This document shows, in pieces, positions 1 to 20,504 of a DNA stretch of 64,000 nt (position 1 is the first letter of the stretch; every line of letters begins with the position of its first letter). The notes below the pieces were generated by a model. That model saw only the letters and a program-made list of their open reading frames with translations. It ran no database searches and was not told where the DNA came from. The position numbers and the translations under genes are program-made. The stretch covers positions 15,614 to 79,613 of IMG/VR virus record IMGVR_UViG_3300017909_001210; one strand, 5' to 3'. The stretch is from a virus. Taxonomy: Duplodnaviria; Caudoviricetes.

Positions 1-2574
1 GAGATTCAAACAAGAACAGGTGTCACAACTTCAGTCGTTGAAGATTTTGTAGAAACAAGAAACGATAGAGTTGTATCAGTGACAATTATACCTTTCATGC
101 GTGCAAGGACTATTGAGATAGATGCAACTAACTTAAAACCAAATACAAACCATTACTTCTATTTTGATAATGTGAATGTTAATAAATTCATAAGACCTCA
201 GAGTGGAAGTTATTCACAAGACGGAGGAACAACAGTTTCTTCAAATTGTAAAACAGACGGAAACGGAAGATTACGTGCATTCTTTGAATTACCAAATAAT
301 TCAGTCAATAGATTCCCAACGGGTCAAAGAGAATTAAGAATTACTTCTTCATTCTATAATTTAAGTAATCCTGCTTCAAATGGTAGTGCTGTATATCAAG
401 CACAAGGTTTATTACAATCTTCACAAACTGAGATTGTATCAACAAGAAATGGTAGAGTAGTCACGGAAAGATTACAAGGTTCAAGGTCAATGGACAGAAG
501 GGGTGAAAGATTAAACTCAGCACCTTTTGATACAGAAGCACCTGAGGTAAGACTCAATGAGATTCCTAATGATACAGTAGAATTACCAGTAGTTCCACCT
601 CAAGCTCCTGCTATACCACCTGAACCACCTTTCGTTCCACCTACATTACCACCTCGACCACCAGTTATATTGGAAGATTTGAGAGATAGAACTCCAAGTC
701 AAAGTGCAAGAATGAGAGTTGGAAGAGGTTCAAGATTGGATAGAGGTTGGGGTGACCCACTTGCACAATCATTCTTATGTGAAGCAGATGGTGGTATGAT
801 GTTAACTTCAGTAGACGTGTTCTTTGAAACAAAAGACGCTTCAATGCCTGTTTCTGTAGAAGTCAGAACCATGGTAAATGGATATCCTGGCCAGACAGTA
901 TTACCATTCTCTACAGTGACACATAACCCTTCTGCAGTTAACACTTCTTCAGACGGGTCAGTTGCAACAACATTTACTTTCGATTCACCAGTATACGTAG
1001 AAGAAAACGTAGAGTATGCATTGGTTGTATACTCAAATTCAAATGAATACAATATGTTCATTTCAAGAATGGGTGAGAAAGACCTTGCAACAGGACAAAC
1101 AATCGCAGGACAACCATATGCTGGTTCATTATTCTTATCTCAAAATGCTTCCACATGGACTGCAGAACAAACTGATGATATGAAGATTAAAATCAAAGTT
1201 GCAAGATTTGACACTTCAAAAATATCAGATTTAAGATTTGAGAATGATGCATTACCAGTTTCAACTTTACAAAACAATCCAATTGAAACATATACAAACC
1301 AAACATATGTAAAAGTATATAATTACTTACACGGAATGTATGATACAGTTGGTAATAAAGATAACGTAGTTATTGCTGGTCTAACAGGTGAGAAAGAAAA
1401 CTCATTGTTAACACTTGGTAATGTCACCATTACAAGTGGAACACCAGCAGATACAACTTATACAGATGTGGGTGACGGAAAAGCAAAATTCAATGTCACT
1501 GTTTCAGGTGGTGTTGTGACTAGTATGTTAATCGAAGAGCCTGGACATGGATATACTGTAGGTGAAACTATCACAATAAACAACTTTGATGCAGAACAAG
1601 CTGGAACTTCTACACTTCAATTTCAAGTGTTATCAGTAGGTGATACCATAGGTGGGTGGCCGATTGATTCATTAAACGGAACATTTACAAATATAGATAA
1701 CAGAGGAATCGATTCATTTACAATCACTCCTGATGTTTCTGCATATGACTTTATCTCAGGATATAATGGTGTAGACAATACAGTGGGTGGAGGAAGTGTT
1801 GCAACATGTTCAAGAAACTATTACTTTGACGGATTGCATACAATGATACCTTCAGTTTCAGTTAAGAATACACAAATACTTTGTAGTGTATACACAACTG
1901 CAATGAGTTCACCCGAAGGTTATGTAAATGGAACTTCATATGTTAAAGATAACACTAGTGATTTCATAACACTGAATGATAATACATTCTTTAGTTCACC
2001 AAGTGTAGTTGCCTCTGCAATTAACGAACAAAACGAAATGTCTTCAACTAAGTCATTCGAATGTCAATTACAACTTGCTTCATTCAACCCGAATGTTTCA
2101 CCAGTGATTGACGTAGGAACAATTGGTGTAATTGGTTTTGCAAACAGATTAAATAACATAGATAGTAGTTCAGATGTCCCTACAGGAACCACATATATCC
2201 CTTCTACAGACCCCGAGGGAGATTCTAATGCAATGGTATATGTGACACGTAAAGTGAACCTTAAAACACCTGCTACGAGTCTTAAAGTTATTGCAGACTT
2301 CTTTAGACCACCAACAACCGAGTTGAAAGTCATGTATAAGATTATTAAGAATGACGAAGATACTCCTTTAGATGATGTCGGGTTTGAATTCTTCAATACA
2401 GATGGTTCACCTGATACTGCGATTGAAGCAGACGGAAGAAACTTTAAAGAATATGAATTCACTGCAAATGACTTGCCTGAATTCAGTGCTTTTGCAATTA
2501 AGATTGTTGGTCAAGGAACAAACACTTCAGTGGTTCCATTAGTGACTGCGTTAAGGACAATGGCACTTGCATAA
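1..2574 (+). CDS. Large virion structural protein (DUF4815/VrlC-like of marine T4-like phages), 5'-truncated
   Basis: Frame is open from base 1 (EIQTRTGVTTSVVEDFVETRNDRVVSV...). WGDPLAQSF, SVDVFFETKD and QPYAGSLFLSQNASTW segments and the C-terminal FSAFAIKIV...LRTMALA resemble cyanophage/pelagiphage DUF4815 proteins. Confidence 0.7.
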   Translation, partial: EIQTRTGVTTSVVEDFVETRNDRVVSVTIIPFMRARTIEIDATNLKPNTNHYFYFDNVNVNKFIRPQSGSYSQDGGTTVSSNCKTDGNGRLRAFFELPNNSVNRFPTGQRELRITSSFYNLSNPASNGSAVYQAQGLLQSSQTEIVSTRNGRVVTERLQGSRSMDRRGERLNSAPFDTEAPEVRLNEIPNDTVELPVVPPQAPAIPPEPPFVPPTLPPRPPVILEDLRDRTPSQSARMRVGRGSRLDRGWGDPLAQSFLCEADGGMMLTSVDVFFETKDASMPVSVEVRTMVNGYPGQTVLPFSTVTHNPSAVNTSSDGSVATTFTFDSPVYVEENVEYALVVYSNSNEYNMFISRMGEKDLATGQTIAGQPYAGSLFLSQNASTWTAEQTDDMKIKIKVARFDTSKISDLRFENDALPVSTLQNNPIETYTNQTYVKVYNYLHGMYDTVGNKDNVVIAGLTGEKENSLLTLGNVTITSGTPADTTYTDVGDGKAKFNVTVSGGVVTSMLIEEPGHGYTVGETITINNFDAEQAGTSTLQFQVLSVGDTIGGWPIDSLNGTFTNIDNRGIDSFTITPDVSAYDFISGYNGVDNTVGGGSVATCSRNYYFDGLHTMIPSVSVKNTQILCSVYTTAMSSPEGYVNGTSYVKDNTSDFITLNDNTFFSSPSVVASAINEQNEMSSTKSFECQLQLASFNPNVSPVIDVGTIGVIGFANRLNNIDSSSDVPTGTTYIPSTDPEGDSNAMVYVTRKVNLKTPATSLKVIADFFRPPTTELKVMYKIIKNDEDTPLDDVGFEFFNTDGSPDTAIEADGRNFKEYEFTANDLPEFSAFAIKIVGQGTNTSVVPLVTALRTMALA

Positions 2575-2786
2575 TGAAAGATATTGAGTATGTAAAAGTT
2601 GAAGGTCACTCACACTTAGTGAGGGACGATAGTTCTCAAGGAATTGTTAATACGGATATAGAACAATATAAATTAACAATGAAACGTAGAGAAATCATGA
2701 GGAATACTCGTGAGGAGATAAATAAATTAAAGGGTGACATGGACGAGATTAAATCTATGTTAACACAACTTATAGAGAAAGTATAA
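2574..2786 (+). CDS. Conserved small hypothetical protein with coiled-coil C-terminus
   Basis: 70 aa, stop/start coupled to both neighbours; VKVEGHSHLVRD motif typical of the gene following DUF4815 in marine T4-like phages. Confidence 0.65.
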   Translation: MKDIEYVKVEGHSHLVRDDSSQGIVNTDIEQYKLTMKRREIMRNTREEINKLKGDMDEIKSMLTQLIEKV

Positions 2787-4003
2787 TGGCAAAAACAGTA
2801 GACCAATTTTCAACGATAGAAAATTTTAGAACCAAGTATAACGAACTCGCAGTTGACGTTGGTGATAAGAGTGGCCTTAGAACAGAAGAAACTGGAAACC
2901 TTGTCGATGCACTTAATAGTTTAGAAGATAAATCATTCTTCTTTCAAGAGTTTAAGTATAGTGCAACTAGTGGTCAAACTGTATTCTCAGGTAATGATTC
3001 TGCAAACAATTCACTTGTTTTTAGAAGTGAAAGAATCCAAGTATTTAAAAACTCAGACCATTTACTTTTAGGAACAGATTACTCAATCGGTGGTGTAGAC
3101 GGAAACAAACATACAGAAATTACACTTAACGTAGGTGCAACGACTGGTGACGTTATCACTATCTATGCATATACAGGTTCATACTTAGGAAGTGCAATTG
3201 GTGCTGGTGGTGGAACAGACGGACAGTTTACTGAAACAGCTGCAAATACTATTTACAATAAAAACTCAAATGGTATAATATTAAATGGTTCTTCAACTGG
3301 AAGAACAACTACACTTACAACAAGTGCAAAAATAGAATTTGATTCTAATAATACAGGTATCTATTCACAAGAAGATATTACACTTGCAACTGGTAAGAGT
3401 GTCACTGCAGACTCCTTTGTGGGTGATTTAACTGGAACTGTCACTGGTAATGTCACTGGAAATGTCACTGGAAATATTTCAGGTAGTTCAGGAACAGTCA
3501 CAAGTATATCTTCACATTCTGCAAGTGGATTATCAGACATTAATTATACCACAACACCTACAAATGGTCAAATCCTTACATGGGATAATGCAAACGGATA
3601 TTGGGAACCAGCAGATAATCAATCTCTTTCTACATTAAGTGGTGATACAGATGACCTTACAGAAGGAACAACAAATCTGTTTTCAACTACAGAAAGAATT
3701 CAAGATGCAGCCGCAACAATGATTACAAGTGCAACACATAGTAATATATCAGTATCATATGATGATGCCTTAGGAACACTTTCATTTACTGCTGGTGCAA
3801 CATATACAGACTCAGACGCAAGAAGTGCGATTGCTGGTGGTGACGGACTTGCATATAATTCTTCAACAGGAAATATGAGTGTTAACACTGCAAAAGGAAT
3901 CGAAATAAATAATGATACAGTTGAATTAGACTATGAAACGACTTCTACTGCCCCAAGTTCTGCTTCGGGAACTGTAGAAGGTCATTTATGGTTTGTGATA
4001 TGA
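2786..4003 (+). CDS. Tail fibre/whisker-like protein
   Basis: G/T/S-rich with GNVT repeats; N-terminal FRTKYNEL helix; C-terminal TAPSSASGTVEGHLWFVI. Confidence 0.7.
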   Translation: MAKTVDQFSTIENFRTKYNELAVDVGDKSGLRTEETGNLVDALNSLEDKSFFFQEFKYSATSGQTVFSGNDSANNSLVFRSERIQVFKNSDHLLLGTDYSIGGVDGNKHTEITLNVGATTGDVITIYAYTGSYLGSAIGAGGGTDGQFTETAANTIYNKNSNGIILNGSSTGRTTTLTTSAKIEFDSNNTGIYSQEDITLATGKSVTADSFVGDLTGTVTGNVTGNVTGNISGSSGTVTSISSHSASGLSDINYTTTPTNGQILTWDNANGYWEPADNQSLSTLSGDTDDLTEGTTNLFSTTERIQDAAATMITSATHSNISVSYDDALGTLSFTAGATYTDSDARSAIAGGDGLAYNSSTGNMSVNTAKGIEINNDTVELDYETTSTAPSSASGTVEGHLWFVI

Positions 4004-4004
4004 T

Positions 4005-5345
4005 ATGTCAGACGAAATTTACATTAATATAGGAAGTTCTTTCCAACAACCTTACCAAGGTCAAACACCTACCCAAGCTCAGTCTGCAGAGGTTAAACAG
4101 ATTGTAAAGAGAACACCTGCTAATACTCAAACACTTTATCAGAGTCCAAGTCGGACTCCTTCAACATATAGAAATCCAGTAAATAGACAAACAAATATAG
4201 ATGCACAAGAGAGTAATCCGTTTACTTTTAATGCACAACAACAGATAGATTATCAAAGTCCTTTTAGAAGTCCTTCGATAACACAAGTAATTGCACAACA
4301 ACCAAGTCCTTATATTGCACAAAGTGAATATCAAAATCCTTTTACTTTTCAACAAGACGTTCAGAATACTGTTGAGGTTCAAAGTGGATATCAAGCTCAA
4401 CAACCATATCAAACTCAATTATCTGTTCAACAGGTAGGGCCTGTTTCCGTGCGAACTTTGCAAATGTATAGATACCCTTATGCATATTGGTATCAATGGA
4501 ATGATGCTAAGTTTAAAGAACCCATCGACTCTGAAATTATAATGTATCAAGGGCCTCGAGGTGATTTAGATGATACCATGGGTTATGCCCAAGCAAGAGG
4601 TATTTCACAAAACCCAGTAATTCTGCAAGGTGTAATAACTCGATATCCTCAACCAGTTCCAGTAAGTGGTCAGGTGCCAAGTCCAACCCCTATCTCATAT
4701 CAATATTTGGGACAACCCATTCAGTATCAGTATATCACACAGGTTGCTGGGACACCATATACCATTCAAAGGGAGGTTTATCAGTCAACAAATCCAGTGC
4801 GAACTCAAACCCCAGCTAGAAGTCGGACTCCTGCTCAACAACCTTTGATTGCGCAATCACCTTCTACAACTCCAGTTCCAGCAAGACAACCTTTAAGACA
4901 ACCATTGGAACTTCAACAACAGATAACTATTCAAGCAGACCAAGACGTTCAAAACCAAGTTAGAGCTCCTGCTAGACAACCAAGTCCATATATTGCACAG
5001 GCACAACAACAAAGTCCGTATATTGCACAACAACCTTCTACATATAGAAACCCAGTGAATAAACAGACTAATACTCAGAATGATACAAGACAACCTAATA
5101 TCTATCAGGTTCCTTATCAAGTTCCGTATATACATAGGTCACCTTACATAACTCAAACACCTTATTCTACAAGTAGAACTGTCGGCCCCATTGCAAAGGT
5201 GAAAGCAATTTATCTAAATAAAGACGGACAAAATATTGAAAAAATAGACCAAGTTTACGTAAATAACTCAGGAACAATTGAGAAAATTCACCAAACTGTT
5301 CCTGCCGCAAGATTTAGTAAGAATCCAAGTAATACTCAACAATAA
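4005..5345 (+). CDS. Q/P/Y-rich repeat protein, probable fibre-tip/adhesin
   Basis: 446 aa; internal repeats STYRNPVNxQTN, QPSPYIAQ, QDVQN; C-terminal KVKAIYLNKDG...DQVYVNNSG domain; directly follows a fibre gene. Confidence 0.6.
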   Translation: MSDEIYINIGSSFQQPYQGQTPTQAQSAEVKQIVKRTPANTQTLYQSPSRTPSTYRNPVNRQTNIDAQESNPFTFNAQQQIDYQSPFRSPSITQVIAQQPSPYIAQSEYQNPFTFQQDVQNTVEVQSGYQAQQPYQTQLSVQQVGPVSVRTLQMYRYPYAYWYQWNDAKFKEPIDSEIIMYQGPRGDLDDTMGYAQARGISQNPVILQGVITRYPQPVPVSGQVPSPTPISYQYLGQPIQYQYITQVAGTPYTIQREVYQSTNPVRTQTPARSRTPAQQPLIAQSPSTTPVPARQPLRQPLELQQQITIQADQDVQNQVRAPARQPSPYIAQAQQQSPYIAQQPSTYRNPVNKQTNTQNDTRQPNIYQVPYQVPYIHRSPYITQTPYSTSRTVGPIAKVKAIYLNKDGQNIEKIDQVYVNNSGTIEKIHQTVPAARFSKNPSNTQQ

Positions 5346-5350
5346 TTTCG

Positions 5351-5358
5351 TATAAATA
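5351..5358 (+). promoter_or_regulatory. T4-type late promoter TATAAATA
   Basis: Exact consensus in an intergenic gap, 5 nt before the ATG at 5364. Confidence 0.75.
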
Positions 5359-5363
5359 GTTAT

Positions 5364-5696
5364 ATGGCTATTATTGCAAATATCTTTATCGACCAAGGAA
5401 CAGACTTCAGTATCACTGTAGACGTGACTGATTCAACAGGTGACGCACTCAATATGAGTGGTTATTCTGCAAGTGCTCAGATACGTAAGACCTACAGTTC
5501 TTCTACTGCAAGTGCAACCTTTGGAACTTCAATTGCAGAAGCAACAGGTCAAGTGACATTAACACTTGACGATACACAAACTACTGCATTAGAAGCGGGA
5601 AGATATGTATACGATATGAACATCACCAGTGGTGGTGGTCAAACAACAAGAGTAGTAGAGGGACAAGCAATTGTCACTCCAGGCGTCACGAGGTAA
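5364..5696 (+). CDS. Virion structural protein (BppU-N-like baseplate/fibre-associated domain)
   Basis: IDQGTDFS...GYSASAQIRK...GRYVYDM...RVVEGQAIVTPGVTR pattern typical of this family. Confidence 0.65.
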   Translation: MAIIANIFIDQGTDFSITVDVTDSTGDALNMSGYSASAQIRKTYSSSTASATFGTSIAEATGQVTLTLDDTQTTALEAGRYVYDMNITSGGGQTTRVVEGQAIVTPGVTR

Positions 5697-5699
5697 ATT

Positions 5700-5945
5700 A
5701 TGTCAGGAATAAAAGGAACAATATCAAGAGTAGCAACCATAGGTGGTCGAGTAGCTGGACAAGGAAATATCCGTGCTAAACAGGTCGCTATTGGTAATTC
5801 GTCTTCTAATGTAAACCTTTCTGCAAAATCTATCAATGAACTTGCAGATGTAAATGCTTCAGAAACAGATGACGGACTACTTTCATACGATGCTGAAACA
5901 GATAAGTGGACAACTACTACTGTTTTAGATGGTGGAACGTTTTAA
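5700..5945 (+). CDS. Small structural protein ending in LDGGTF
   Basis: 81 aa; INELADVN...DGLLSYD repeat typical of fibre proteins. Confidence 0.55.
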   Translation: MSGIKGTISRVATIGGRVAGQGNIRAKQVAIGNSSSNVNLSAKSINELADVNASETDDGLLSYDAETDKWTTTTVLDGGTF

Positions 5946-5948
5946 TCG

Positions 5949-5956
5949 TATAAATA
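5949..5956 (+). promoter_or_regulatory. T4-type late promoter TATAAATA
   Basis: Exact consensus upstream of the ~135-nt leader of the fibre gene at 6093. Confidence 0.75.
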
Positions 5957-6092
5957 AATATACAAATCAAGGATACCGACCAGTGAAGGTATCGACCCAC
6001 ATTGTGAGTGGACTAGTTATATATTATGTTTCTCTCGGGATAGTGAACGAGAATTAATTAATTAATTTTACATAAACTATAGGAATAGAAAA

Positions 6093-7682
6093 ATGGCAAC
6101 AGTTATTCAAATCAAAAGAAGCACAGGCTCTGCCGCTCCAGCTGTATCAGACTTAGCTGAGGGTGAATTAGCGTATGTGCAAGATAGGAGTAATTCAGGT
6201 GCTAGTGCAAAACTTTTTATTGAATCAGTAGATTCTGATAACAGCACTCCTTTAATACAAGCTATTGGTGGTAAGTATTATACGGATATGTTAGCAGGTT
6301 CAACTGCAACACCTGCCGACTTTTTAGTTGGTAATGGTTCAACCTCAGGTGGTTCAATCAAGTTAATGGAAGATTCAGACAACGGAAGTAATTCAGTTGC
6401 ATTGAAAGCTCCCGATACACTAGCTTCGAATGTATCCTTTGTTCTACCTTCTTCAGATGGTAGTGCAAACCAAGTATTAGGAACAGACGGGTCAGGAAAC
6501 TTATCTTTCTTATCTACTACTTCAACACTAGCTGGTGCTTCAGACTCAGACATTTCAAACCCTGCTTCAGGACACATTCTTGTCCATGACGGGACGGATT
6601 CGTTTGACAACGTAGCAATCAGTGGTGACATTTCACTTGCATCAAGTGGTGCGGTGACAATTTCTGCTGGTGCAGTAGAATTCTCAATGTTAGATGGTGC
6701 AATGGTTCAAACTGCATCAGAGTTCGCTTTAAATGGTTTAGGTGATAATGACACCTCAGTCATGACAGCTGCTGCGGTTAATGATTTAATTGAATCAAAA
6801 GTGACTGCAGAAGACCTAGACGTAGCTGGTGACAGTGGAACAGGTTCAGTCGACTTAGATTCACAATCATTAACAATCGCAGGAACAACTAACGAGATTG
6901 AAACTTCTGCTTCAGGACAAACTATAACAGTAGGTTTACCAAATGACGTGACAGTCGGAAACGACTTAACAGTCACAAATAACTTAGTTGTTTCAGGTCA
7001 ATTACAATCAGACGATATTACTGCAGCGACAATGACTGCTTCAGGAAACGTTGTTGTGACAGGAGACTTAACAGTTAACGGAACTACTACAACTGTAAAC
7101 TCAACAACTACATCAGTTGCTGACCCAGTATTTGAAATCGGTGATGATGCATCAGATGACAACTTAGATAGAGGTATTAAATTTAAGTATAACTCAGGTG
7201 GTGCCGCAGGTGGTGCAAAAGTTGGTTTCTTCGGTTATGATGATACAGACGCTACATTTACTTTCATTAGTGATGCAACAGATTCATCTTCAACCTTCTC
7301 AGGTTCAGCTGGTAATGTTAAGTTCGGTGGTTTAGCACTTTCAGGTTCAATTACTTCATATGACGGGTCAGCACCAACTGCTGGTCAAGTTCTAATCGGT
7401 AATGGAACTAATGGTGATTTACAACTTGGAACTCTAACTGCTGGTGAAGGGATTGATGTCACAAATGCAGACGGAAGTATAACCCTTTCAGCTGAAGATG
7501 CAACTGACTCTAACAAGGGTATTGCTTCATTCTCCGCTTCTTACTTTACAGTGACTAGTGGTGATGTTGCGATTGCAGATGCAACAACTTCAAGTAAAGG
7601 TATAGCTTCATTCGACTCAAGTAATTTCACACTCACTTCAGGTGACGTTGCAATTACAGCTATTGATGGTGGAACATTTTAA
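6093..7682 (+). CDS. Tail fibre protein
   Basis: MATVIQIKRS...LAEGELAY N-terminal fibre motif; GDLTVNGTTTTVNSTT module; ends IDGGTF. Confidence 0.75.
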   Translation: MATVIQIKRSTGSAAPAVSDLAEGELAYVQDRSNSGASAKLFIESVDSDNSTPLIQAIGGKYYTDMLAGSTATPADFLVGNGSTSGGSIKLMEDSDNGSNSVALKAPDTLASNVSFVLPSSDGSANQVLGTDGSGNLSFLSTTSTLAGASDSDISNPASGHILVHDGTDSFDNVAISGDISLASSGAVTISAGAVEFSMLDGAMVQTASEFALNGLGDNDTSVMTAAAVNDLIESKVTAEDLDVAGDSGTGSVDLDSQSLTIAGTTNEIETSASGQTITVGLPNDVTVGNDLTVTNNLVVSGQLQSDDITAATMTASGNVVVTGDLTVNGTTTTVNSTTTSVADPVFEIGDDASDDNLDRGIKFKYNSGGAAGGAKVGFFGYDDTDATFTFISDATDSSSTFSGSAGNVKFGGLALSGSITSYDGSAPTAGQVLIGNGTNGDLQLGTLTAGEGIDVTNADGSITLSAEDATDSNKGIASFSASYFTVTSGDVAIADATTSSKGIASFDSSNFTLTSGDVAITAIDGGTF

Positions 7683-7711
7683 TAATAGTTAATCAATAAT
7701 AGGAGAGTCAA

Positions 7712-8833
7712 ATGGCAACTGTAATTACATTTAAAAAGAGTTCTACTCAGAATGCAACTCCAGGCGTAAGTGACCTAGTTCTTGGTGAATTAGCAGTCAA
7801 TACTTACCACGGAAGATTTTATACTGAGAAGAACGATGGAACGGCTGCCGTTGTCGAGGTCGGGTCAAACCCTGCCTCTTTGACAGTTAATGATGCTATT
7901 ACATTTCCAACTTCAGATGGAACATCAGGACAAGTATTACAAACAGACGGAAGTGGAACACTTTCTTTTGCAGATTCTTCATCTGCGTCAGATAACGTAT
8001 TCACTTATACTGTCACTTCTAACCAAACAATTTTCTCAGGAAACGATGATGACGGACAAACATTGTCCTATTCAATTGGTGAAGAACAAGTATACTTAAA
8101 TGGTGTTTTATTAGTAGACGGAGGTGCTGACTATACAACAACTAATACTTCTACAATCACTTTACAAGCAAATGCAGTAAGTGGTGACGTAGTTGTAATT
8201 AGAACGCCTGGTTCTGCGTCAACAAGTGCTTCAACAGGAAGTTCTGACTTGACAACAACAGATTCAGACCAAGCATTATTGTCAGTTCCCGTTGCAAACA
8301 AAGCGATTAAAGTCAACTTGGTTGCAACCCACTCTACAGCAGGAGCTCATTTTGCAGAAGTCGTAGTAGTAAATGACGGAAGTAATTCTTATATCTCACA
8401 ATTTGCAGACACTTTTACAGGTTCAAGTCTATTCAGTCTTGCAACTGATATCAGTGGTTCAGATATGAGATTGTTAATTACCCCAACAAATACTAATACA
8501 AGTGTATCTTCTTCATATATTAAACTTCCAACTGCTGGAACTTCAACAACATTTTCTGCTACAACTGCAGACCAAGTGTTGTCAAGTGTTTCAACAGGAA
8601 TTAAAGGTATTAAATATGAATTGGTAGCAACACATGCTACTGCGGGAACACACTTTGCAGAAGTGACATTGACAAACGATGGTTCAGATGCATACTTCGT
8701 CCAATTTGGAGACGTATTCACAAATGCATCATTGTTTACATTGGACGCAGACGTGTCAGGAAGTAATCAACGACTTCTAATCACACCTGCGAATACTAAC
8801 ACAACTGTTTCAGTTAAGAAAACAACATTATAG
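7712..8833 (+). CDS. Tail fibre-associated protein with two copies of a ~95-aa domain
   Basis: MATVITFKKS...LVLGELAVN N-terminus; duplicated HFAEVxxxNDGS...FTLDADxSGSxxRLLITPxNTNT domain. Confidence 0.65.
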   Translation: MATVITFKKSSTQNATPGVSDLVLGELAVNTYHGRFYTEKNDGTAAVVEVGSNPASLTVNDAITFPTSDGTSGQVLQTDGSGTLSFADSSSASDNVFTYTVTSNQTIFSGNDDDGQTLSYSIGEEQVYLNGVLLVDGGADYTTTNTSTITLQANAVSGDVVVIRTPGSASTSASTGSSDLTTTDSDQALLSVPVANKAIKVNLVATHSTAGAHFAEVVVVNDGSNSYISQFADTFTGSSLFSLATDISGSDMRLLITPTNTNTSVSSSYIKLPTAGTSTTFSATTADQVLSSVSTGIKGIKYELVATHATAGTHFAEVTLTNDGSDAYFVQFGDVFTNASLFTLDADVSGSNQRLLITPANTNTTVSVKKTTL

Positions 8834-8843
8834 GGGATAAGAA

Positions 8844-9254
8844 ATGGCTAAAACAAATGCTTTTAAGATTGCTGAGTTAATCCGTGCTATCACTTTTGAT
8901 GTTGATAATGACGAAATAGTCACAAGTAAAGCAATACAGTCTAAGAATAAAAAGACTGGTGGTGATACATATACTGCAACAACAGAAGTTGCACTCGATA
9001 CTTTTGCACATGCAAGTTTCAGAGCTGCAAGATACGTTATTGCAATGGACGAGGGAACAAACTTCCACTCAACCGAAGTTATGTTGGTTCACGATGGTTC
9101 TACAGTGACTATGACTCAATATGGAACATTGAAAGATACTAATCTCGCAACATTCGATGCAGATATTAGTGGTGACAATGTAAGGTTGTTAATAACACCT
9201 GCTAGTGCTAATAGCACAATCGTCAAATTTGATAGAACAGTGGTAGACGCTTAA
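8844..9254 (+). CDS. Structural protein with one copy of the same ~95-aa domain
   Basis: HSTEVMLVHDGS...TQYG...TFDADISGDNVRLLITP. Confidence 0.6.
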   Translation: MAKTNAFKIAELIRAITFDVDNDEIVTSKAIQSKNKKTGGDTYTATTEVALDTFAHASFRAARYVIAMDEGTNFHSTEVMLVHDGSTVTMTQYGTLKDTNLATFDADISGDNVRLLITPASANSTIVKFDRTVVDA

Positions 9255-9273
9255 CATCTAATTTAAAAAACTA

Positions 9274-9302
9274 AGGGGGTTCTTCGGAACCCTCTTTTTT
9301 TG
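9274..9302 (+). terminator. Rho-independent terminator with cUUCGg tetraloop
   Basis: AGGGGGTTC-TTCG-GAACCCTCT followed by a T-run. Confidence 0.85.
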
Positions 9303-9350
9303 GCTTGAAAAAAACCATAAATAGATTTAGACAATTTAAACGAGTATTTT

Positions 9351-10184
9351 ATGGCAACCAATTCGAAATTCATTGCAGATTTAGGTTTAAAGACTGATGC
9401 AGATTTACAAGTAGACGGAAATATAACTGTATCAGGTAATCTAACTGTAAATGGCACAACTACAACAGTTAATTCCACTACAACTTCAGTGGAAGACTCG
9501 ATGCTGGAACTTGCAAACCAAAATACTAGTTCAGATACACTTGATATAGGTATTTACGGAAATTATGATGACGGATTGGGTGACGGAGCTTCAGAATACA
9601 CTGGATTATTCAGAGATGCAACCGATTCAACTTGGAAATTATTTGACGGACTAGAAGTAGAACCAACAACTACAGTTAACACAAGTGGTTCAGGTTATTC
9701 ACTTGCAGATATACAGGTGGGTGACTTAACAGCAACTACTTTAACTGCAACCAACAGTCTTACAGGGTCTTCTATCACCTATCCTACCTCAGACGGAACT
9801 AACGGACAAGTTCTTACAACAAATGGTAGTGGAACATTATCTTTTGCAGATGCAAGTAGTGGATTGGAAGAAGGAACAGTCACAACAACTTCAACAAGTA
9901 TAACAAATTTAGATAGTATTGCAGTTGCATCATATAGAGGTGCAAAATATTCAATAACAATATCAGATTCTACTAGTGGTGTGTATCAAATAACAGAATG
10001 TCATGTAATTCATGACGGAACCAGTGCTAGTATAACACAATTTGGAACAGTATTGCAAGGTGGTTCAAGTGAATTGGGAACATTTACAGTAGATATTAAT
10101 AGTGGAAACTTGAGATTGAGAGTTGCAAGTGCAACAACCAATTCAACAGTATACAAGTTTAAAAGAATCGACCATTCTGTATAA
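9351..10184 (+). CDS. Tail fibre-like structural protein
   Basis: GNLTVNGTTTTVNSTT module, PTSDGTNGQVL module and the C-terminal ~95-aa repeated domain. Confidence 0.65.
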   Translation: MATNSKFIADLGLKTDADLQVDGNITVSGNLTVNGTTTTVNSTTTSVEDSMLELANQNTSSDTLDIGIYGNYDDGLGDGASEYTGLFRDATDSTWKLFDGLEVEPTTTVNTSGSGYSLADIQVGDLTATTLTATNSLTGSSITYPTSDGTNGQVLTTNGSGTLSFADASSGLEEGTVTTTSTSITNLDSIAVASYRGAKYSITISDSTSGVYQITECHVIHDGTSASITQFGTVLQGGSSELGTFTVDINSGNLRLRVASATTNSTVYKFKRIDHSV

Positions 10185-10233
10185 TTTTTTTAATCTTTTT
10201 TTAAAATAACCTTCTGCTTAAACGACTCGACTT

Positions 10234-10241
10234 TATAAATA
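10234..10241 (+). promoter_or_regulatory. T4-type late promoter TATAAATA
   Basis: Exact consensus in the intergenic gap before 10278. Confidence 0.7.
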
Positions 10242-10277
10242 TTAGGGTAAAATCAAAGTAAAAGGGGACTTTTCTAA

Positions 10278-10538
10278 ATGGCAACACAAAATACCTTTGT
10301 AATTGAATATGGATTGACTGTAGGAACTACCGAAGTCATATCAAGTGCGGGTAAACTCGCTGCAAGTGCATTATCATTATTAAATACTGATTCACTTGCT
10401 GAAGGGTCAACCAATCAATACTTTTCAAACAGTCTTGCAAGAGGTGCTATATCACTTGCAAGTGGAGAATCAAATTTAAGTTATAATTCAACTTCGGGTG
10501 AATTATCATTACCACAAGTAGATGGGGGAACATTTTAA
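10278..10538 (+). CDS. Small structural protein ending in VDGGTF
   Basis: N-terminus resembles that of the next gene (FVIEYGLTVGTTEVI vs FIIKNGLTVGTTEVI); LAEGSTNQYF fibre repeat. Confidence 0.6.
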   Translation: MATQNTFVIEYGLTVGTTEVISSAGKLAASALSLLNTDSLAEGSTNQYFSNSLARGAISLASGESNLSYNSTSGELSLPQVDGGTF

Positions 10539-12124
10539 TGACAGCTAAGAACTTTATAATCAAGAATGGTCTTACAGTCGGGACAACAGAGGTTATAGAC
10601 AGTTCAGGTAGACTTACGGGTTCTGCCATAACTGATTCGATTGACGATAGAGTCAATACCCTCTTGACTGCGGGAACAGGTATAACATTAACATATGACG
10701 ATAGTGCAAACACACTAACAATTGACGGACAAACTGGTGATGTGACTGGAGTCACTGCTGGAACAGGTCTATCAGGTGGTGGTTCATCAGGTGACGTTTC
10801 ACTTGCTATCGACTACAGTGCAACTTGGGGAGGTAATTTAATCCCTGATGGAAACGAAACAAGGGACTTAGGTTCTACAAGTGCAAGGTGGAATGACTTA
10901 TACCTTGCTGGTTCAACTATTAACTTAGGTGGAACAGAACTTTCAAAAGACTCAGACGGAAATATTGAGATGTCTGCAAGTGGAACATTGAAATCACTTA
11001 AAGTTGCAGAAATCGAAATTGGAACAGGAGATGACGTTCTTGTTCTTAAAAGAGATAGTAATGGTAAACTTCAATCAAGAAGTAAGAACAAAACTTCAAG
11101 AACAGAAACAGCTGCAGATGTAGATTTATCTAATAACGATTCAGATGACCTTTCAGAAGGGTCAAGCAACCTCTATTACACTGATGCACGTGTTCAAACA
11201 TTCTTAGGTGGTGGTTCACTTGCTGGTAATGTCATACCAGCTGCTGATAACACATATGACTTAGGTTCATCTTCAAGAATGTGGAAGGACGTATATATCG
11301 GGCCAGGTTCATTATATGTTAATGGTCAGAAAGTGGTTGAAGATAACTCAGGAACAATCGTTGTTTCTGCAGACGATAACCAAAACGTTTCTGTTCAAAC
11401 AGGTGGTTCAGGTGACGTAGAACTTGACCCAACAGGAACAGGTGTTATCCAAATTAAAGGAACACTTCAAATCGAAGACGGACAAAACATTACTAACAGT
11501 GCTGGAAATGAAATATCTTTCGGAAACAATATAACAGTTGACCAAATTGCATCTAAATCAACAGACACTAACTTAGTATTAAGTGGTAATGGAACAGGTA
11601 ATGTCACATTAAATGACAATGTTGCAATTACAGGTGACTTAACAGTTTCAGGAACTACAACGACTGTAAACTCAGAAACTATTTCACTTGCAGATAACGT
11701 AATTGCATTAAACAGTAATTTCACTTCAGGTTCACCAACAGAAGATTCAGGTATTAGTATCACTAGAGGTGGTTCTTCTGCTAAGACACTTCTTTGGGAC
11801 GAAACAAATGACAAATGGACTGTAGGTTCAGAAACTTTTGTTGCTGGAACTTTCGAAGGAAACCTAACTGGAAATGTCACTGGAAATGTCATTGGAGATG
11901 TCACTGGAGACTTAACAGGAACAGCTTCAAGTGCAACCCTTGCTACAAATGCTCAAGGATTGACTGGAACTCCAAATATTTCAGTTGGAACAATTGCCTC
12001 AGGTGCTATTACTATCACCAATGCAACAAACAGTGGTGGAACTGCTAGAAACGTTTACCAATCAACATCAGCTCCTGCTTCAGGTGATGGTGCGGTTGGT
12101 GATTTGTGGATTCTTTACTCCTAA
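10538..12124 (+). CDS. Tail fibre protein
   Basis: G/T/S-rich; DLGSTSARWNDLYL and DLGSSSRMWKDVYI repeats; GNVT repeats; C-terminal SAPASGDGAVGDLWILYS. Confidence 0.75.
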   Translation: MTAKNFIIKNGLTVGTTEVIDSSGRLTGSAITDSIDDRVNTLLTAGTGITLTYDDSANTLTIDGQTGDVTGVTAGTGLSGGGSSGDVSLAIDYSATWGGNLIPDGNETRDLGSTSARWNDLYLAGSTINLGGTELSKDSDGNIEMSASGTLKSLKVAEIEIGTGDDVLVLKRDSNGKLQSRSKNKTSRTETAADVDLSNNDSDDLSEGSSNLYYTDARVQTFLGGGSLAGNVIPAADNTYDLGSSSRMWKDVYIGPGSLYVNGQKVVEDNSGTIVVSADDNQNVSVQTGGSGDVELDPTGTGVIQIKGTLQIEDGQNITNSAGNEISFGNNITVDQIASKSTDTNLVLSGNGTGNVTLNDNVAITGDLTVSGTTTTVNSETISLADNVIALNSNFTSGSPTEDSGISITRGGSSAKTLLWDETNDKWTVGSETFVAGTFEGNLTGNVTGNVIGDVTGDLTGTASSATLATNAQGLTGTPNISVGTIASGAITITNATNSGGTARNVYQSTSAPASGDGAVGDLWILYS

Positions 12125-12178: not shown

Positions 12179-12751
12179 ATGGCAATCGGAATTACACAAC
12201 AACCTTACATTGCAAGTGCTCAGCAGCCTTTTTCATTCCAAAGTCCGTTTACGTATAGTGCAAGGTATCCTGCTAACGCACAACAACCCGTGTCGTATCA
12301 GTCACCTTTTACGTATAATGCAAGGTATCCAGCGAATGCTCAACAACCAGTGACATATAGGTCACCATTTACCTATAGAGTTCCATATCGTGCAAATGCA
12401 AGACAACCATTTACTTACAGAAACCCATTTACATATAGGGTTCCATACCAAGCAAATGCAAGACAACCTTTTACATATAACTTTAGGTCACCATTCACTT
12501 ACAGAAACCCAAGTAATGCTAGACAACCTTCTGAGTATCAACATAGAAGTCCGTTTACTTACCAAAATCCAGTGAATGCACAAGAACCTAATATAAGAAA
12601 TGCTCAGACACCATTTACATATAGTAATAGACAACCATTTACATATAGTAATAGACAACCAGCAACATATGCGACTCAAGGAAGAACTCCTGAAGCAAGG
12701 TGGGACGGAGTAGTATCACAACAGTGGCCTGGGTCACCAATAACAGGATAA
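12179..12751 (+). CDS. PFTY/ANAxQP repeat protein
   Basis: 190 aa made almost entirely of (S/N/T/Q)PFTY and (Y)PANA(Q/R)QP repeats. Confidence 0.7.
   Translation: MAIGITQQPYIASAQQPFSFQSPFTYSARYPANAQQPVSYQSPFTYNARYPANAQQPVTYRSPFTYRVPYRANARQPFTYRNPFTYRVPYQANARQPFTYNFRSPFTYRNPSNARQPSEYQHRSPFTYQNPVNAQEPNIRNAQTPFTYSNRQPFTYSNRQPATYATQGRTPEARWDGVVSQQWPGSPITG
12611..12660 (+). repeat. Perfect 24-nt tandem duplication (PFTYSNRQ x2)
   Basis: CCATTTACATATAGTAATAGACAA repeated twice. Confidence 0.85.
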
Positions 12752-12759
12752 TATAAGAC

Positions 12760-13980
12760 ATGGCATCAGGAAATCAATCAGTCAAGACACCTACAGGTTG
12801 GAATGCGACCCAAGGTGCATGGGTTAAAACTGGTTCTTCTACGTGGAGTGCAGTTGACCAAATCTATATCAAAACACCTTCAGGGTGGAATAATGCTTCG
12901 GGTCAAGAACTTACACAAGTTCCATACCCTTATATTGCAAACAGTCAAACACCATATATTGCAAATGGTCAACAACCTTATATTGCAGATGCAAGACAAC
13001 CTTCTGAGTATCAACATAGGTCACCATTTACATATAGAAATCCAGTAAATGCTCAAGAACCTAACATTAGGAATGCACAAACACCATTTACATATCAGAA
13101 TCCAGTAAATGCACAACAACCTAATATTAGAGATGCACAAAACCCATTTACATACGAAAACAGATATCCTGCGAATGCTCAGTCACCAAGTAATGCACAA
13201 AACCCATTCACTTATGACGCAAGGTATCCTGCGAATATTCAACAACCAGTAGCATTTAGGTCACCTTTCACATATCGTGTGCCTTATATTGCTAATGCTA
13301 GACAACCAGTAGCATTTAGGTCACCTTTCACATATCGTGTGCCTTATATTGCTAATGCTAGACAACCTGTTAGTGGAAGGAATCCATTTACATATAACAA
13401 TAGGGCTGCGGTGTCTTACTTCTATCCTGACCCATCGCCTGGTGGTGGTGGTGGTGGCGGTTGCTTCGTCGCTGGGACACCTATTCTTATGCATGACGGA
13501 ACAACAAAACCAATTGAGTCAATCGTATTGGGTGACCAAATTAAAGTTTGGAGTGAGGAAGGTCAAATTGTTAAAGAAGTTGAAAAACTTATGTCACCAA
13601 GACCTACTAAAGTTGTTAACCTCGTTATTGCAAATGAAAACGGAGATACAGTTGCAGAATTAGGAACAACAAAAGACCACCCATTCAAACTAGTAGACGG
13701 AACATGGGGTGTTGTAGATACTGAATATTGGAAAGAATCTCACCCTCAGTTTGAAAATACTGAACAATTGTATGGTGAAGAATTAAATGAAGTCAATCTA
13801 AAAGTTGGTGATAAACTTCAATCAGTTTGGGGTTCTGCAGTTCTAAAAGATATTATTGATACTGGTGAAGAAAAAGAAGTATACCATATATTAGAAGTAG
13901 GTAATTTCTATACAGACGGAGTTGTCGCACATAACATGGTGAAACAAATCTTCGATCCCATCGACAATGAGAGATTCTAG
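12760..13980 (+). CDS. PFTY-repeat protein with N-terminal W-rich docking-like domain and C-terminal Hint (intein-like) domain
   Basis: GWNATQGAWVKTGSSTWSAVDQIYIKTPSGW N-terminus; the same repeats as 12179; Gly7 linker then CFVAGT...TTKDHPF...VYHILEVGNFYTDGVVAHN. Confidence 0.8.
   Translation: MASGNQSVKTPTGWNATQGAWVKTGSSTWSAVDQIYIKTPSGWNNASGQELTQVPYPYIANSQTPYIANGQQPYIADARQPSEYQHRSPFTYRNPVNAQEPNIRNAQTPFTYQNPVNAQQPNIRDAQNPFTYENRYPANAQSPSNAQNPFTYDARYPANIQQPVAFRSPFTYRVPYIANARQPVAFRSPFTYRVPYIANARQPVSGRNPFTYNNRAAVSYFYPDPSPGGGGGGGCFVAGTPILMHDGTTKPIESIVLGDQIKVWSEEGQIVKEVEKLMSPRPTKVVNLVIANENGDTVAELGTTKDHPFKLVDGTWGVVDTEYWKESHPQFENTEQLYGEELNEVNLKVGDKLQSVWGSAVLKDIIDTGEEKEVYHILEVGNFYTDGVVAHNMVKQIFDPIDNERF
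13242..13367 (+). repeat. Perfect 60-nt tandem duplication (QPVAFRSPFTYRVPYIANAR x2)
   Basis: 13242-13301 is identical to 13302-13361, with 6 further matching nt. Confidence 0.9.
13462..13935 (+). other. Hint domain (bacterial intein-like), 158 aa
   Basis: Block A CFVAGT at 13462, block B TxxH (TKDH), terminal His-Asn at 13930-13935; the next residue is Met; no homing endonuclease. Confidence 0.85.
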
Positions 13981-15606: not shown

Positions 15607-16170
15607 ATGAACGCATTAATTTATACAGAAGACAGTAAACTTATAGTCCGAAAGGAAAATGGTTTACAATATGATTTTGAAAACGTAGATAGACCTGAAT
15701 TGGGTTTTGACTTTGACGTATTAGTTTATGACGATGTTGAAGTTAAGATTTTAAAATGGGAAGACGGAAAACAATTTGACGAACAAGAACATACTGCATT
15801 GACAGAAGAAGACAGACTTAGTATTGAAACATATATCAAAAATTCTGAACCACCTTTGGGATATAATTTAAATCAACAATATATCAATCAATTGGAACAA
15901 CTTGTGTTAGATTATCAAACACAATGTTCTGAATTGTATGGAATGTATGATTTATTATATGCAAATGTAGCTGGAAGAGAAGGGTCAAATCACCCTAGAC
16001 GTTCTGATGCAAGAAGAGCATTAGAATATTTTGATAACATATGGTTTTGTTTTGAAAATGTGGTTGCAGAAATTCAACAAACAAGAGAAGATACTTTAAA
16101 GAGTTTTGACCACTATGCTGGTGCAATTCCCGACCCTTTAGTGACTCCCGACTCTAGGTCAAATAGGTAA
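15607..16170 (+). CDS. Hypothetical protein, tail-fibre-assembly/chaperone-like C-terminus
   Basis: YDLLYANVAG...NHPRRSDARRALEYFDNIW resembles the YDxIxxAxxY...HP...EA...WxDxVW pattern of phage fibre-associated proteins. Confidence 0.4.
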   Translation: MNALIYTEDSKLIVRKENGLQYDFENVDRPELGFDFDVLVYDDVEVKILKWEDGKQFDEQEHTALTEEDRLSIETYIKNSEPPLGYNLNQQYINQLEQLVLDYQTQCSELYGMYDLLYANVAGREGSNHPRRSDARRALEYFDNIWFCFENVVAEIQQTREDTLKSFDHYAGAIPDPLVTPDSRSNR

Positions 16171-18823: not shown

Positions 18824-19639
18824 ATGTCAGAACCGAATTCAAAAGCAGCCTTAAAAGAATATATCAAGAGAAAACTTGGAGCTCCAGTTCTAGAAATTAA
18901 CGTGGACGATGACCAGTTTGACGATAGAATCGATGAGGCACTACAATATTTCAGAGAATTCCATTACGATGGTTCTATTAAGACATTTTTAAAACACCAA
19001 ATCACTCAAGAAGAGATTGATTCATTCAAAACGAATGAAACTCATAATGCAGCGACAACTGGAACACATGCAATCTCAGGACAAACTTACGGAGAGGGTC
19101 AAAACTACATTACACTACCCGAACACGTGTTAAGTGTAATCAATATTTTCCCTTTCAATTCAGGTCAAACTTCAAGTATGTTTGATATCCAGTATCAATT
19201 AAGATTGAATGATTTATATGATTTAACTTCAACAAGTGTTTTATACTATTCACAAGTTCAATCACACTTGTCACTTTTAAACGATATCCTAGTGGGTCAG
19301 ATACCTATTAGATACAATATGCATTCTAACAGACTTTACATGGACTACAGTGCAAGTAAATTAAGTGCTGGTGAGTATATCATTATTGAATGTTATAGAA
19401 AATTAGACCCAACAGACATGACTGATATCTATAATGATATGTGGTTGAAAAAGTATTCAACTGCATTAGTGAAGTATCAATGGGGAGAGAACCTCTCTAA
19501 ATTCCAAGGAGTTGAGTTGCCTGGTGGTATAACACTAGACGGAGCTCAAATGAAAACAGAAGCACAAGAAGAGATAACTAAATTAGAAGAAGAATCCCGA
19601 CTGAATTTCGAAATGCCAGTCATGGATATGATGGGGTAA
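18824..19639 (+). CDS. gp13: Neck protein gp13
   Basis: LKEYIKRKLGAPVLEINVDDDQ...WLKKYSTALVKYQWGENLSKFQGVELPGG; position in the T4 gene order. Confidence 0.92.
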   Translation: MSEPNSKAALKEYIKRKLGAPVLEINVDDDQFDDRIDEALQYFREFHYDGSIKTFLKHQITQEEIDSFKTNETHNAATTGTHAISGQTYGEGQNYITLPEHVLSVINIFPFNSGQTSSMFDIQYQLRLNDLYDLTSTSVLYYSQVQSHLSLLNDILVGQIPIRYNMHSNRLYMDYSASKLSAGEYIIIECYRKLDPTDMTDIYNDMWLKKYSTALVKYQWGENLSKFQGVELPGGITLDGAQMKTEAQEEITKLEEESRLNFEMPVMDMMG

Positions 19640-19643
19640 TTGA

Positions 19644-20504
19644 ATGCCTACAAATGTATTTTTTAACCATGCAGTCAACACTGAACAACACCTTTACGAA
19701 GATTTAGTTGTTGAGTCGTTAAGATTCTATGGTCATGATGTCTTCTATCTTCCTAGGGAAATAATCGAAGAAGACACAATTTTAACTGAAGACGTTCAAT
19801 CACGTTTCGGTGATGCATATTCTGTAGAAATGTATTTAGAAAATCCAGGCGGTGGATTCGAAGGTGAGGGTGACCTCATGTCTAAATTCGGTGTTCAAAT
19901 CAATGAAGAAGCAACCTTTGTGATATCATTGAGAACTTGGGAAAGATTCATATCACTAGATTCAAACCTTGCAACTTCACTTAGACCAAATGAAGGGGAT
20001 TTAATTTACTTCCCACTTTCAGGTTCTATGTTTGAAATTAGATTCGTAGAAGACCAAAATCCATTCTTCCAGTTAGGAAAACTATTTGTATTCAAAATGC
20101 GTTGCACATTATTCGAGTATGGTGGAGAAGACTTCGATACTGGAACAGATGCAGACTTGGTTGAACAAGATAGAGCATACACAATTTCTATGACTATGTC
20201 AGATACAGATTCAGAAAACACTGGTTCTTATGTTGCAAATGAAAACGTCACATTGAATAGTGTTGTAGTTGGTGAAGTTGTAAACTACAGAGGTTCAAAC
20301 AGAGAACTCATTATTAAAGATAACACTACAACACTTGCACAAGGAGATAGACTTGTCGGTGCAACCTCGGGTGCAACAAGAACGATTGCAAGTATTGTTG
20401 ACGTAATGACTATGGAAGGAAGTGTTGCACAAAATAAAGACTTCGAAGATAAAGATAATAATTATCTAGACTTTAGTGAAACGAATCCGTTTGGAGAACC
20501 CTAA
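19644..20504 (+). CDS. gp14: Neck protein gp14
   Basis: EQHLYEDLVVESLRFYGHDVFYLPR...RPNEGDLIYFPL...NPFGEP. Confidence 0.92.
   Translation: MPTNVFFNHAVNTEQHLYEDLVVESLRFYGHDVFYLPREIIEEDTILTEDVQSRFGDAYSVEMYLENPGGGFEGEGDLMSKFGVQINEEATFVISLRTWERFISLDSNLATSLRPNEGDLIYFPLSGSMFEIRFVEDQNPFFQLGKLFVFKMRCTLFEYGGEDFDTGTDADLVEQDRAYTISMTMSDTDSENTGSYVANENVTLNSVVVGEVVNYRGSNRELIIKDNTTTLAQGDRLVGATSGATRTIASIVDVMTMEGSVAQNKDFEDKDNNYLDFSETNPFGEP

Follow-up and report, generated by a model that had tools for sequence, protein, structure and literature searches.

A Gln-, Pro- and Tyr-rich phage protein with length-matched arms and a hypervariable centre, possibly a folded-back host-recognition stalk

The subject of this study is a single open reading frame (ORF) at positions 4005-5345 (+ strand) of a 64,000-nucleotide stretch of the IMG/VR virus record IMGVR_UViG_3300017909_001210 (positions 15,614 to 79,613 of that record), the whole of which is here called the window. 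The ORF encodes a protein of 446 amino acids (aa) that is rich in glutamine (77 residues, Q 17%), proline (49, P 11%) and tyrosine (33, Y 7%). Threonine, serine and isoleucine are also abundant, histidine occurs only twice and cysteine is absent. The phage encodes several late proteins with at least 17% glutamine. A sequence-only reading of this gene had proposed a hairpin-shaped needle with a receptor-binding loop at the middle of the chain, based on motifs that recur in mirrored order in the two halves of the protein. The gene has the following elements.

4005..5345, + strand: the ORF, a fused form of the family; 446 aa, with 160 homologues at E <= 1e-3 and 70 syntenic viral loci
4005..4064, + strand: N-module M.DEIYIN.G...QQPYQGQ (aa 1-20); nearly invariant, with columns invariant in alignments A1 and A2
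4041..4499, + strand: N arm in dipeptide register (aa 13-165); prolines all even, aromatics all odd except W162
4158..4184, + strand: N copy of motif A, PSTYRNPVN (aa 52-60); DNA repeat family D5, 85% identity over 40 nucleotides (nt)
4299..4322, + strand: N copy of motif B, QPSPYIAQ (aa 99-106); DNA families D2 and D4, offset 678 nt
4353..4367, + strand: N copy of motif C, QDVQN (aa 117-121); unconserved among homologues
4500..4793, + strand: centre, a hypervariable cassette (aa 166-263) without parity register; weakly predicted as beta-rich, with a predicted local distance difference test score (pLDDT) of 55-67
4794..5165, + strand: C arm in perfect dipeptide register (aa 264-387), from the register counts
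4941..4955, + strand: C copy of motif C, QDVQN (aa 313-317), from the sequence
4977..5000, + strand: C copy of motif B, QPSPYIAQ (aa 325-332); a third SPYIAQ lies at aa 337
5034..5060, + strand: C copy of motif A, PSTYRNPVN (aa 344-352), from the sequence
5166..5342, + strand: C-module ..IGPIAKVKAIYLNKDG..K..QVYVNNSG..EKIHQTVPAARFSK.. (aa 388-446); conserved, without PDB or Pfam relative

A homologue search returned 160 matches at E <= 1e-3, with full-length members ranging from 74% down to ~30% identity, and an exhaustive HMMER scan of 1.84 billion representatives returned 82 at the same threshold. None of the 160 matches carries a functional name, the labels being only 'hypothetical protein' or gene coordinates. 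Relatives are present at 70 IMG/VR loci, and the order of the neighbouring genes is kept wherever the loci reach those genes. No family in Pfam-A (E <= 0.01) or PHROGs (E <= 0.001) matches the 446-aa ORF, and a search of the ESM Atlas gave no usable match. Searching 50,697 phage records by tblastn with the whole protein and with the C-module also yielded no match, where the low-complexity filter may hide part. For the C-module, 42 sequences compared to Pfam at E <= 1 gave scattered chance-level matches only, and a profile searched against PDB sequences reached a best E of 0.13, which is not significant. This best alignment places AKVK.IY.N..G.V.K. against ..KVLAIYFNKNDQVTKI.. of chain 7txx_A, and probably represents just a common beta-hairpin motif. 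The listing of a literature search on proline-rich or glutamine-rich phage fibre repeats held no relevant entry.

Both arms of the protein obey a strict rule of alternation. In the N arm, aromatic residues occupy odd positions, with the exception of W162, and prolines occupy even positions; the rule repeats in the C arm. To quantify the register, we counted pairs of like residues within 40 residues of each other on aa 21-157 and aa 264-384. In the N arm, 50/50 aromatic pairs and 39/39 proline pairs are at even spacing, and in the C arm 17/17 and 85/85, while shuffled sequences give even-spacing fractions of 0.50 +/- 0.07 for aromatics and about 0.50 for proline. The centre and the C-module do not follow the parity rule. 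The register is family-wide, and perfect stretches reach up to 211 residues with 63 informative residues (locus L032). Of 49 window ORFs tested, each at least 150 aa long, all but the 446-aa ORF and two further repeat ORFs have 12 or fewer informative residues in register.

The two parity classes differ in composition. The proline class contains P (21.6%) and Q (27.4%), plus T, I, N and R, and the aromatic class contains Y (17.6%), A (11.8%), S (11.0%), V (8.1%) and F (7.9%). Prolines are found at irregular even spacings of 2-28 residues, and both arms are arrays of degenerate units, each of ~10-20 residues and built on a Pro-aromatic-x-aromatic core. At the DNA level the only tandem repeat in the gene is one 12-nt x 2.2 array, and the register does not derive from tandem repetition of the DNA. 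Proline has no backbone NH with which to donate a hydrogen bond. A strand with its prolines on one parity would therefore be hydrogen-bonded on one side only, either as an edge strand or within a two-stranded ribbon. We infer that the alternation reflects extended strands whose two faces differ chemically, and the perfect parity register would fit long extended strands with one open edge.

To compare the arms across the family, we took 66 unique full-length homologues and measured arm and centre lengths from one invariant anchor to the next. N-arm length ranges from 134 to 207 residues, C-arm length from 107 to 192 and centre length from 95 to 135, and the raw correlation between N-arm and C-arm length is r 0.87. 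Using a tree built from non-arm columns, both arms change with the same sign in 25/30 phylogenetically independent contrasts (PICs) where both change (p 3e-4; sign-flip permutation p 1e-4), confirming the expectation of the sequence-only reading that insertions and deletions (indels) in the arms would be paired. The length variation is centre-proximal on both sides, with aa 112-158 ranging over 30-99 residues and aa 264-296 over 28-94, and the stretches aa 20-74 and aa 328-429 are of fixed length. When anchors are set at nearly invariant prolines, the coupling is nested. The outer-N and outer-C intervals give a PIC r of 0.70 (16/16 same sign; range 0.70-0.94) and the inner-N and inner-C intervals a PIC r of 0.74 (21/25 same sign; range 0.74-0.81), with crossed and adjacent interval pairs at a PIC r of about 0 or negative. 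This nested coupling was reproduced by three aligners and by an ends-only tree. The coupling of total arm length is solid, and the rung-level nesting of arm indels is suggestive. Gene conversion between the arms is unlikely to be behind the length matching: the copies differ synonymously (35/48, 26/33 and 28/33 nt identical), and gene conversion would pair collinear intervals, which show a PIC r of -0.01 to -0.63.

The 446-aa protein diverges more than the genes around it. Neighbouring genes are 92-100% identical compared to 69% for the 446-aa protein in locus L002, and 76-93% compared to 36% in locus L010. The divergence is unevenly distributed, as the sequence-only reading anticipated for a hypervariable centre: the five closest homologues are 88-100% identical at aa 1-20 and 301-440 and only 27-56% identical at aa 121-300. 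The ratio of nonsynonymous to synonymous substitution rates (dN/dS) is 0.12-0.36 at the ends and about 0.5-0.9 in the centre (0.62-0.91 for the cassette at aa 166-263); for aa 121-165 of the closest pair it climbs to 3.5, from small counts. The synonymous rate of the centre is itself 2.5-6 times that of the ends, which indicates that the centre is a recombining cassette. A hypervariable centre with raised dN/dS would suit an exposed part that contacts the host.

The family occurs in two gene forms. Among 71 loci, 36 carry a single fused gene and 33 a pair of adjacent genes; the remaining 2 are truncated where their contigs end. In split loci, gene 1 consists of the N-module, an arm and a variable non-repetitive domain, and gene 2 consists of an arm and the C-module. 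The N-module heads gene 1 in 33/33 split loci, and N- and C-modules are found together in 69/69 complete loci, the one observation that bears on the earlier idea that the EIYINIG strand might complete the C-terminal domain. That the N-module also precedes other C-terminal domains was first counted against cooperation of the N- and C-modules and then dropped, as these cases are split gene 1, always with the C-module gene adjoining. On a tree of neighbouring genes, the fused and split forms differ by one change, either fusion or fission, with a support of 97% for the split clade. The lengths of arm 1 and arm 2 remain matched on separate polypeptides, with r 0.93 over 20 unique split pairs (without phylogenetic correction) and arm 1/arm 2 lengths such as 145/169, 160/184, 195/218, 247/269 and 320/325. 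In locus L051, nearly all of the gene 1 arm is a ~107-aa PYPYIAN-type block and nearly all of the gene 2 arm a ~107-aa PFTY-type block; the arm blocks of locus L060 are 77 and 84 aa. An extra 83-aa ORF lies between genes 1 and 2 in L060 (L060:7116-7367) and at the matching position in L062.

The motifs on which the hairpin had been proposed are all present: PSTYRNPVN at aa 52 and 344, QPSPYIAQ at aa 99 and 325, QDVQN at aa 117 and 313, the central MYRYPYAYWYQW at aa 154, and EIYINIG, AIYLNKDG and QVYVNNSG at aa 4, 401 and 416. Their nested A-B-C...C-B-A order is correct as a description but not significant (chaining p 0.26 for the mirrored order). Motifs A and B repeat beyond chance, since a repeated 8-mer occurs in 0/2000 composition-preserving shuffles and a repeated 6-mer in 2.9%. 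QDVQN is at chance level (a repeated 5-mer in 28.7% of shuffles), and its N-half copy is missing even from the closest homologues, which read QQNVQT (P0001) and QQEGQQ (P0002). Chained arm-to-arm high-scoring segment pairs total 171 in collinear and 168 in mirrored order, against a block-permutation null of 155 +/- 17 (p 0.21 and 0.26). Similarly, Smith-Waterman comparison of the arms scores 147 for collinear order, with a mean of 130 and maximum of 156 for block-reversed order and a mean of 123 and maximum of 171 for random block order. Across 16 lineages, p < 0.05 was reached for mirrored order in 7 and for collinear order in 4, the null of this comparison being biased low. The nesting of three motif pairs has a prior probability of 1/6. 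Motif B sits on a collinear diagonal, where families D2, D4 and D7 share a 678-nt offset that places aa 78-117 with aa 304-343, and the i+j sums of the three motif pairs (396, 424 and 430) give no single register.

Motifs A and B are members of a multi-copy repeat vocabulary of ~10-20 residues, and further copies are present in distant homologues (for example A53 A107 B127 ... A334 B370 A388). Because the order is insignificant and motif B lies on the collinear diagonal, the nested order by itself is no evidence for a hairpin. The premise leading from mirrored identical motifs to an in-register hairpin does not hold either, given the insignificant order, the multiple copies of the motifs and the arms of split genes, which may differ in flavour. 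The arms do resemble each other strongly relative to residue shuffles (z 5-28 in 16/16 lineages). Plain collinear duplication of the arm was considered on the strength of these z scores and dropped, as block-reversed and random block orders score as well.

AlphaFold2 predicts a confident all-beta knob after the arm of split gene 1 (pLDDT 82-96). Fold searches with this knob yielded no significant relative: the best Foldseek match had an E of 0.016, the best VIA match was the CfaE adhesin (Z 5.0 over 126 aa, root-mean-square deviation 4.3), and fimbrial adhesins head both the Foldseek and VIA lists at the level of a generic beta-sandwich. Predicting a complex of aa 1-157 with aa 264-446 (alignment A2) returned scores of 0.00 and 0.01 for the interaction prediction score from aligned errors (ipSAE), a result that weighs neither way.

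The shared register, the arm lengths coupled both in cis and in trans, the co-occurring conserved termini and the hypervariable middle together fit a folded-back antiparallel stalk. In such a host-recognition fibre, to which we assign slightly less than an even chance, each arm would be a long amphipathic extended beta-strand and the N and C arms would pair antiparallel into a two-stranded ribbon. Both termini would be basal, with the N- and C-modules together at the virion-proximal base, and the variable cassette would be at the distal end in contact with the host. Arm length, and hence reach, would shift by paired insertions in both arms. The sister clade would build the same device from two adjacent genes, with the gene 1 knob as the variable beta-sandwich. 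We assume that the oligomer is probably a trimer that buries the aromatic faces, as in other phage fibres. Parallel pairing in the fused form would need an arm-long return connection or an open-ended polymer. Across the fused and split forms the arms measure 110-340 residues, and an extended strand rises ~3.3 Angstrom per residue; a ribbon would therefore be roughly 35-110 nm long. A more specific proposal is that the family represents a new fibre fold, an ultra-long two-stranded antiparallel beta-ribbon made from one folded-back chain or from two gene products, with a Tyr/Phe/Ala face and a Gln/Pro face, paired even-numbered insertions and an exchangeable distal cassette that binds the host. 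We advance this only tentatively and lean against it.

Several results weigh against the folded-back stalk. The AlphaFold2 monomer model of the 446-aa protein (31 sequences) has a mean pLDDT of 42 and a predicted template modelling score (pTM) of 0.17, with both arms at a pLDDT below 50, and the arm of split gene 1 is at 25-35. Disordered models are an outcome that the sequence-only reading had named as contrary to it, and this is formally what the monomer gives; it carries little weight, as fibres are frequently modelled poorly when taken as monomers. The nested coupling is lost with the less conserved anchors 106/146/268/290, and at fine scale the sign agreement is only 0.62-0.68 and rests on few large events. 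Selection for overall reach could also account for the coupling of total length. In most lineages the N arm exceeds the C arm by 11-45 residues, and any pairing would therefore have to include bulges. Phase slips occur within arms in the P0013 to P0030 clades, and the conservation of parity is partly inherited from even-length repeat units. Additionally, no cultured phage among the 50,697 records carries the gene, and the gene at this place in phage Melnitz is unrelated and fibre-like. The earlier proposal of a hairpin needle with a central receptor loop therefore survives in part: the hypervariable centre and the paired arm indels speak for it, as does the parity register, which it had not foreseen, and the reasoning from motif order and the low AlphaFold2 arm scores (<50) do not.

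Equal arms could also arise in a linear two-segment fibre, an arrangement we consider unlikely, in which the N-module is the anchor to the virion or to the upstream fibre protein, arm 1 the proximal shaft, the centre a knee, arm 2 the distal shaft and the C-module the tip. The matched lengths would then reflect the need to fold like a jack-knife, much as T4 has half-fibres of roughly equal length. Genes of fibre operons often stand in their order of assembly, the split forms resemble two consecutive fibre segments, and split gene 1 has the classical layout of anchor, shaft and C-terminal knob. The T4 long fibre consists of hinged proximal and distal half-fibres and folds back when retracted, according to the available text of PMC9603124. 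However, in a linear arrangement the supposed knee would be hypervariable and domain-swapping and the supposed tip the most conserved part, which is the opposite of the usual receptor-binding pattern. Proline on one parity argues for a single bonded neighbour, which by its geometry an assembly of three identical strands around a threefold axis could not give, and the nested indel pattern, where seen, is not predicted by a linear fibre.

Quite unlikely, in our view, is a low-complexity and largely disordered tether or adhesive whose ends bind two partners and whose arms are flexible spacers selected for total length. Here parity would be the passive legacy of duplicating even-length repeats, as 10- and 20-residue units keep parity automatically, and the motif mirror would be chance, in keeping with an arm-to-arm similarity that is independent of block order and a mirror order that is insignificant. 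Disorder would also agree with the AlphaFold2 arm scores (pLDDT 24-35). The Q/P/Y-rich composition may resemble that of prion-like and gluten-like low-complexity domains. What a tether leaves unexplained is the register: arm length varies about threefold through many indels, yet most lineages show zero odd-length slips across 30-63 informative residues, and a disordered chain would have no reason to keep register. The parity classes form a clean amphipathic pattern, the repeats are too degenerate for recent duplication (the single 12-nt x 2.2 array; synonymous differences), and the arm lengths match even on separate polypeptides.

The surroundings of the ORF in the window contain the following features.

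2786..4003, + strand: up1, an upstream fibre-like gene, 405 aa, C-terminus ..GHLWFVI; syntenic in loci reaching up1
5351..5358, + strand: TATAAATA, a putative T4-type late-promoter core between the ORF and dn1, from a motif scan
5364..5696, + strand: dn1, a downstream conserved gene, 110 aa; matches phrog_1084 / phrog_3304, 'L-shaped tail fiber protein assembly'
12179..13980, + strand: two further repeat ORFs, 12179-12751 and 12760-13980, with repeat vocabulary and parity register as in the 446-aa protein

The start of the 446-aa ORF is 1 nt past the stop of up1. The identity of dn1 across loci is 65-98%, though it adjoins the hypervariable protein, and the dn1 homologue of Melnitz is annotated 'tail fiber'. 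Tail-fibre assembly proteins are encoded just downstream of receptor-binding genes. By analogy the protein, or split gene 2, could be a non-virion assembly factor that acts as chaperone, ruler or scaffold along a neighbouring fibre, and gene 2 directly following the knob-bearing gene 1, the PHROG annotation of dn1 as fibre assembly and an up1 length that rises with arm length in split loci with complete up1 are in line with this, but we judge it very unlikely because the up1-arm relation covers only 3-4 lineages and fails in fused forms (up1 ~400 aa, arms 134-207), an N-module, arm and variable knob look like a receptor-binding protein and not a chaperone, and a hypervariable centre with raised dN/dS is in keeping with an exposed surface that contacts the host. 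In split loci L025-L059, up1 is 394-451 aa with arms of 145-184, ~600 with arms of ~250 and 824-847 with arms of 320-337; this relation covers 3-4 independent lineages only and fails in fused forms.

As a whole, the window is a structural module of the T4-like kind: genes for neck, sheath-stabiliser, terminase, sheath, portal, scaffold and major capsid proteins lie at 18.8-31.5 kb. Fibre-like ORFs are spread over 79-12124, and neck-type genes lie at 18824-20504. ORF 79-2574 matches only PHROGs of unknown function, and the downstream fibre gene at 6093-7682 has DNA matches to cyanophage genes for ordinary fibre proteins. The major capsid protein shares 63-67% identity with its counterparts in the pelagimyophages Melnitz, HTVC008M and Mosig. 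The TATAAATA core occurs 15 times in the window, on the + strand only, where 5.6 +/- 2.4 are expected and 0/100 shuffles reach 15. The sites span 5351 to 59067, mostly just 5' of ORF starts (12144, 18794, 26145, 28821 and 31580), a distribution that would fit T4-type late promoters. In the window scan, no such core was found directly before the 446-aa ORF or up1. Contigs from RNA libraries (4 metatranscriptome studies) cover parts of the gene and 2 bridge the up1/ORF junction, with DNA carry-over possible; gene stretches that these contigs leave uncovered carry no meaning. Judged from sequence and setting, the ORF is best explained as a structural host-recognition protein of the fibre type from an uncultured pelagimyophage-like, T4-type phage.

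This setting has a likely counterpart in pelagimyophages. The available text of Zaragoza-Solas et al. 2020 (PMC7029224) describes a pelagimyophage 'host recognition cluster', in which fibre genes and accessory genes form a hypervariable block of the structural region just before the neck genes, between VrlC and the neck gene gp14. The window appears to share that layout, with fibre-like ORFs around the 446-aa gene and neck-type genes beyond them, and the closest cultured relatives of the phage are pelagimyophages. In contrast, a Q/P/Y-repeat protein, arm matching and a parity register go unmentioned in the available text of that paper, and cultured Melnitz lacks the 446-aa gene at the equivalent position.

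The needle of T4 gp37 has a His-x-His iron motif. Within its residues 811-1026, each chain extends as far as the tip and then doubles back, which leaves the termini together at the knob and the receptor tip mid-segment (PMC9603124, in its available text), and the needle binds seven iron atoms (PMC6957217, likewise). On this description, the 446-aa protein would share with gp37 a place in a T4-type host-recognition apparatus, the proposed chain-reversal topology and extended strands along the fibre axis. The differences are considerable. No sequence relation was detectable in the Pfam, PHROG, tblastn and PDB-sequence searches, and with only 2 histidines an iron-histidine core is impossible; as both sequence homology and the histidine signature fail, the 446-aa protein lies outside the gp37 family. 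The arms are ~110-340 residues long here and roughly 50 in T4, and the protein is a separate small protein or gene pair here and the end of a 1026-aa fibre there. The 446-aa protein is also Q/P/Y-rich with one-parity proline, and its hairpin is inferred where that of gp37 is solved. The comparison suggests a family of phage host-recognition fibres that may follow a gp37-like principle of chain reversal, without described relatives and with an unusual sequence rule.

Other systems offer partial likenesses. The adenovirus fibre and reovirus sigma1 are anchor-shaft-knob fibres, and split gene 1 likewise has an N-terminal anchor, a repetitive shaft and a beta-sandwich knob. Unlike these fibres, split gene 1 has another repeat unit and register, is accompanied by a length-matched arm protein and carries a knob without a significant structural relative. 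Period-2 sequences are known from silk-type (Gly-Ala)n beta-sheets and the X-Pro rods of TonB spacers. These share the strict two-class alternation over long stretches, but the 446-aa protein has no simple dipeptide repeat, and prolines make up no more than ~22% of their class.

Some of the most abundant bacteria of the sea are hosts to pelagimyophage-like phages, whose genes for host recognition have hardly any annotation. The present family is the fastest-evolving gene of its block, keeps its position across 70 viral contigs and is without relatives in Pfam, PHROGs, PDB sequences and cultured phages. If the folded-back stalk is correct, the parity rule, slip-free for as many as 211 residues, would provide a legible signature by which such needles could be recognised in metagenomes. 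Should the arms pair as a length-matched beta-ribbon, phages would have a novel means of making a receptor probe of adjustable reach, from one small protein or two. The fused and split forms are a natural experiment in supplying fibre strands in cis or in trans.

The two further repeat ORFs, 12179-12751 and 12760-13980, are tandem arrays of 20-residue units, for example SPFTYRNPVNAQEPNIRNAQ and SPFTYRVPYIANARQPVAFR, with registers of 174 aa (56 informative residues) and 177 aa (50 informative residues), respectively. Their perfect-register stretches are thus nearly equal in length, and from their sequences the two ORFs may be a second length-matched arm pair. The N-terminus of ORF 12179, MAIGITQQPYI, resembles gene 2 of split loci. 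The C-terminus of ORF 12760 contains Gly7 followed by a Hint-like domain, with weak Pfam matches to PF05203 and PF01079.

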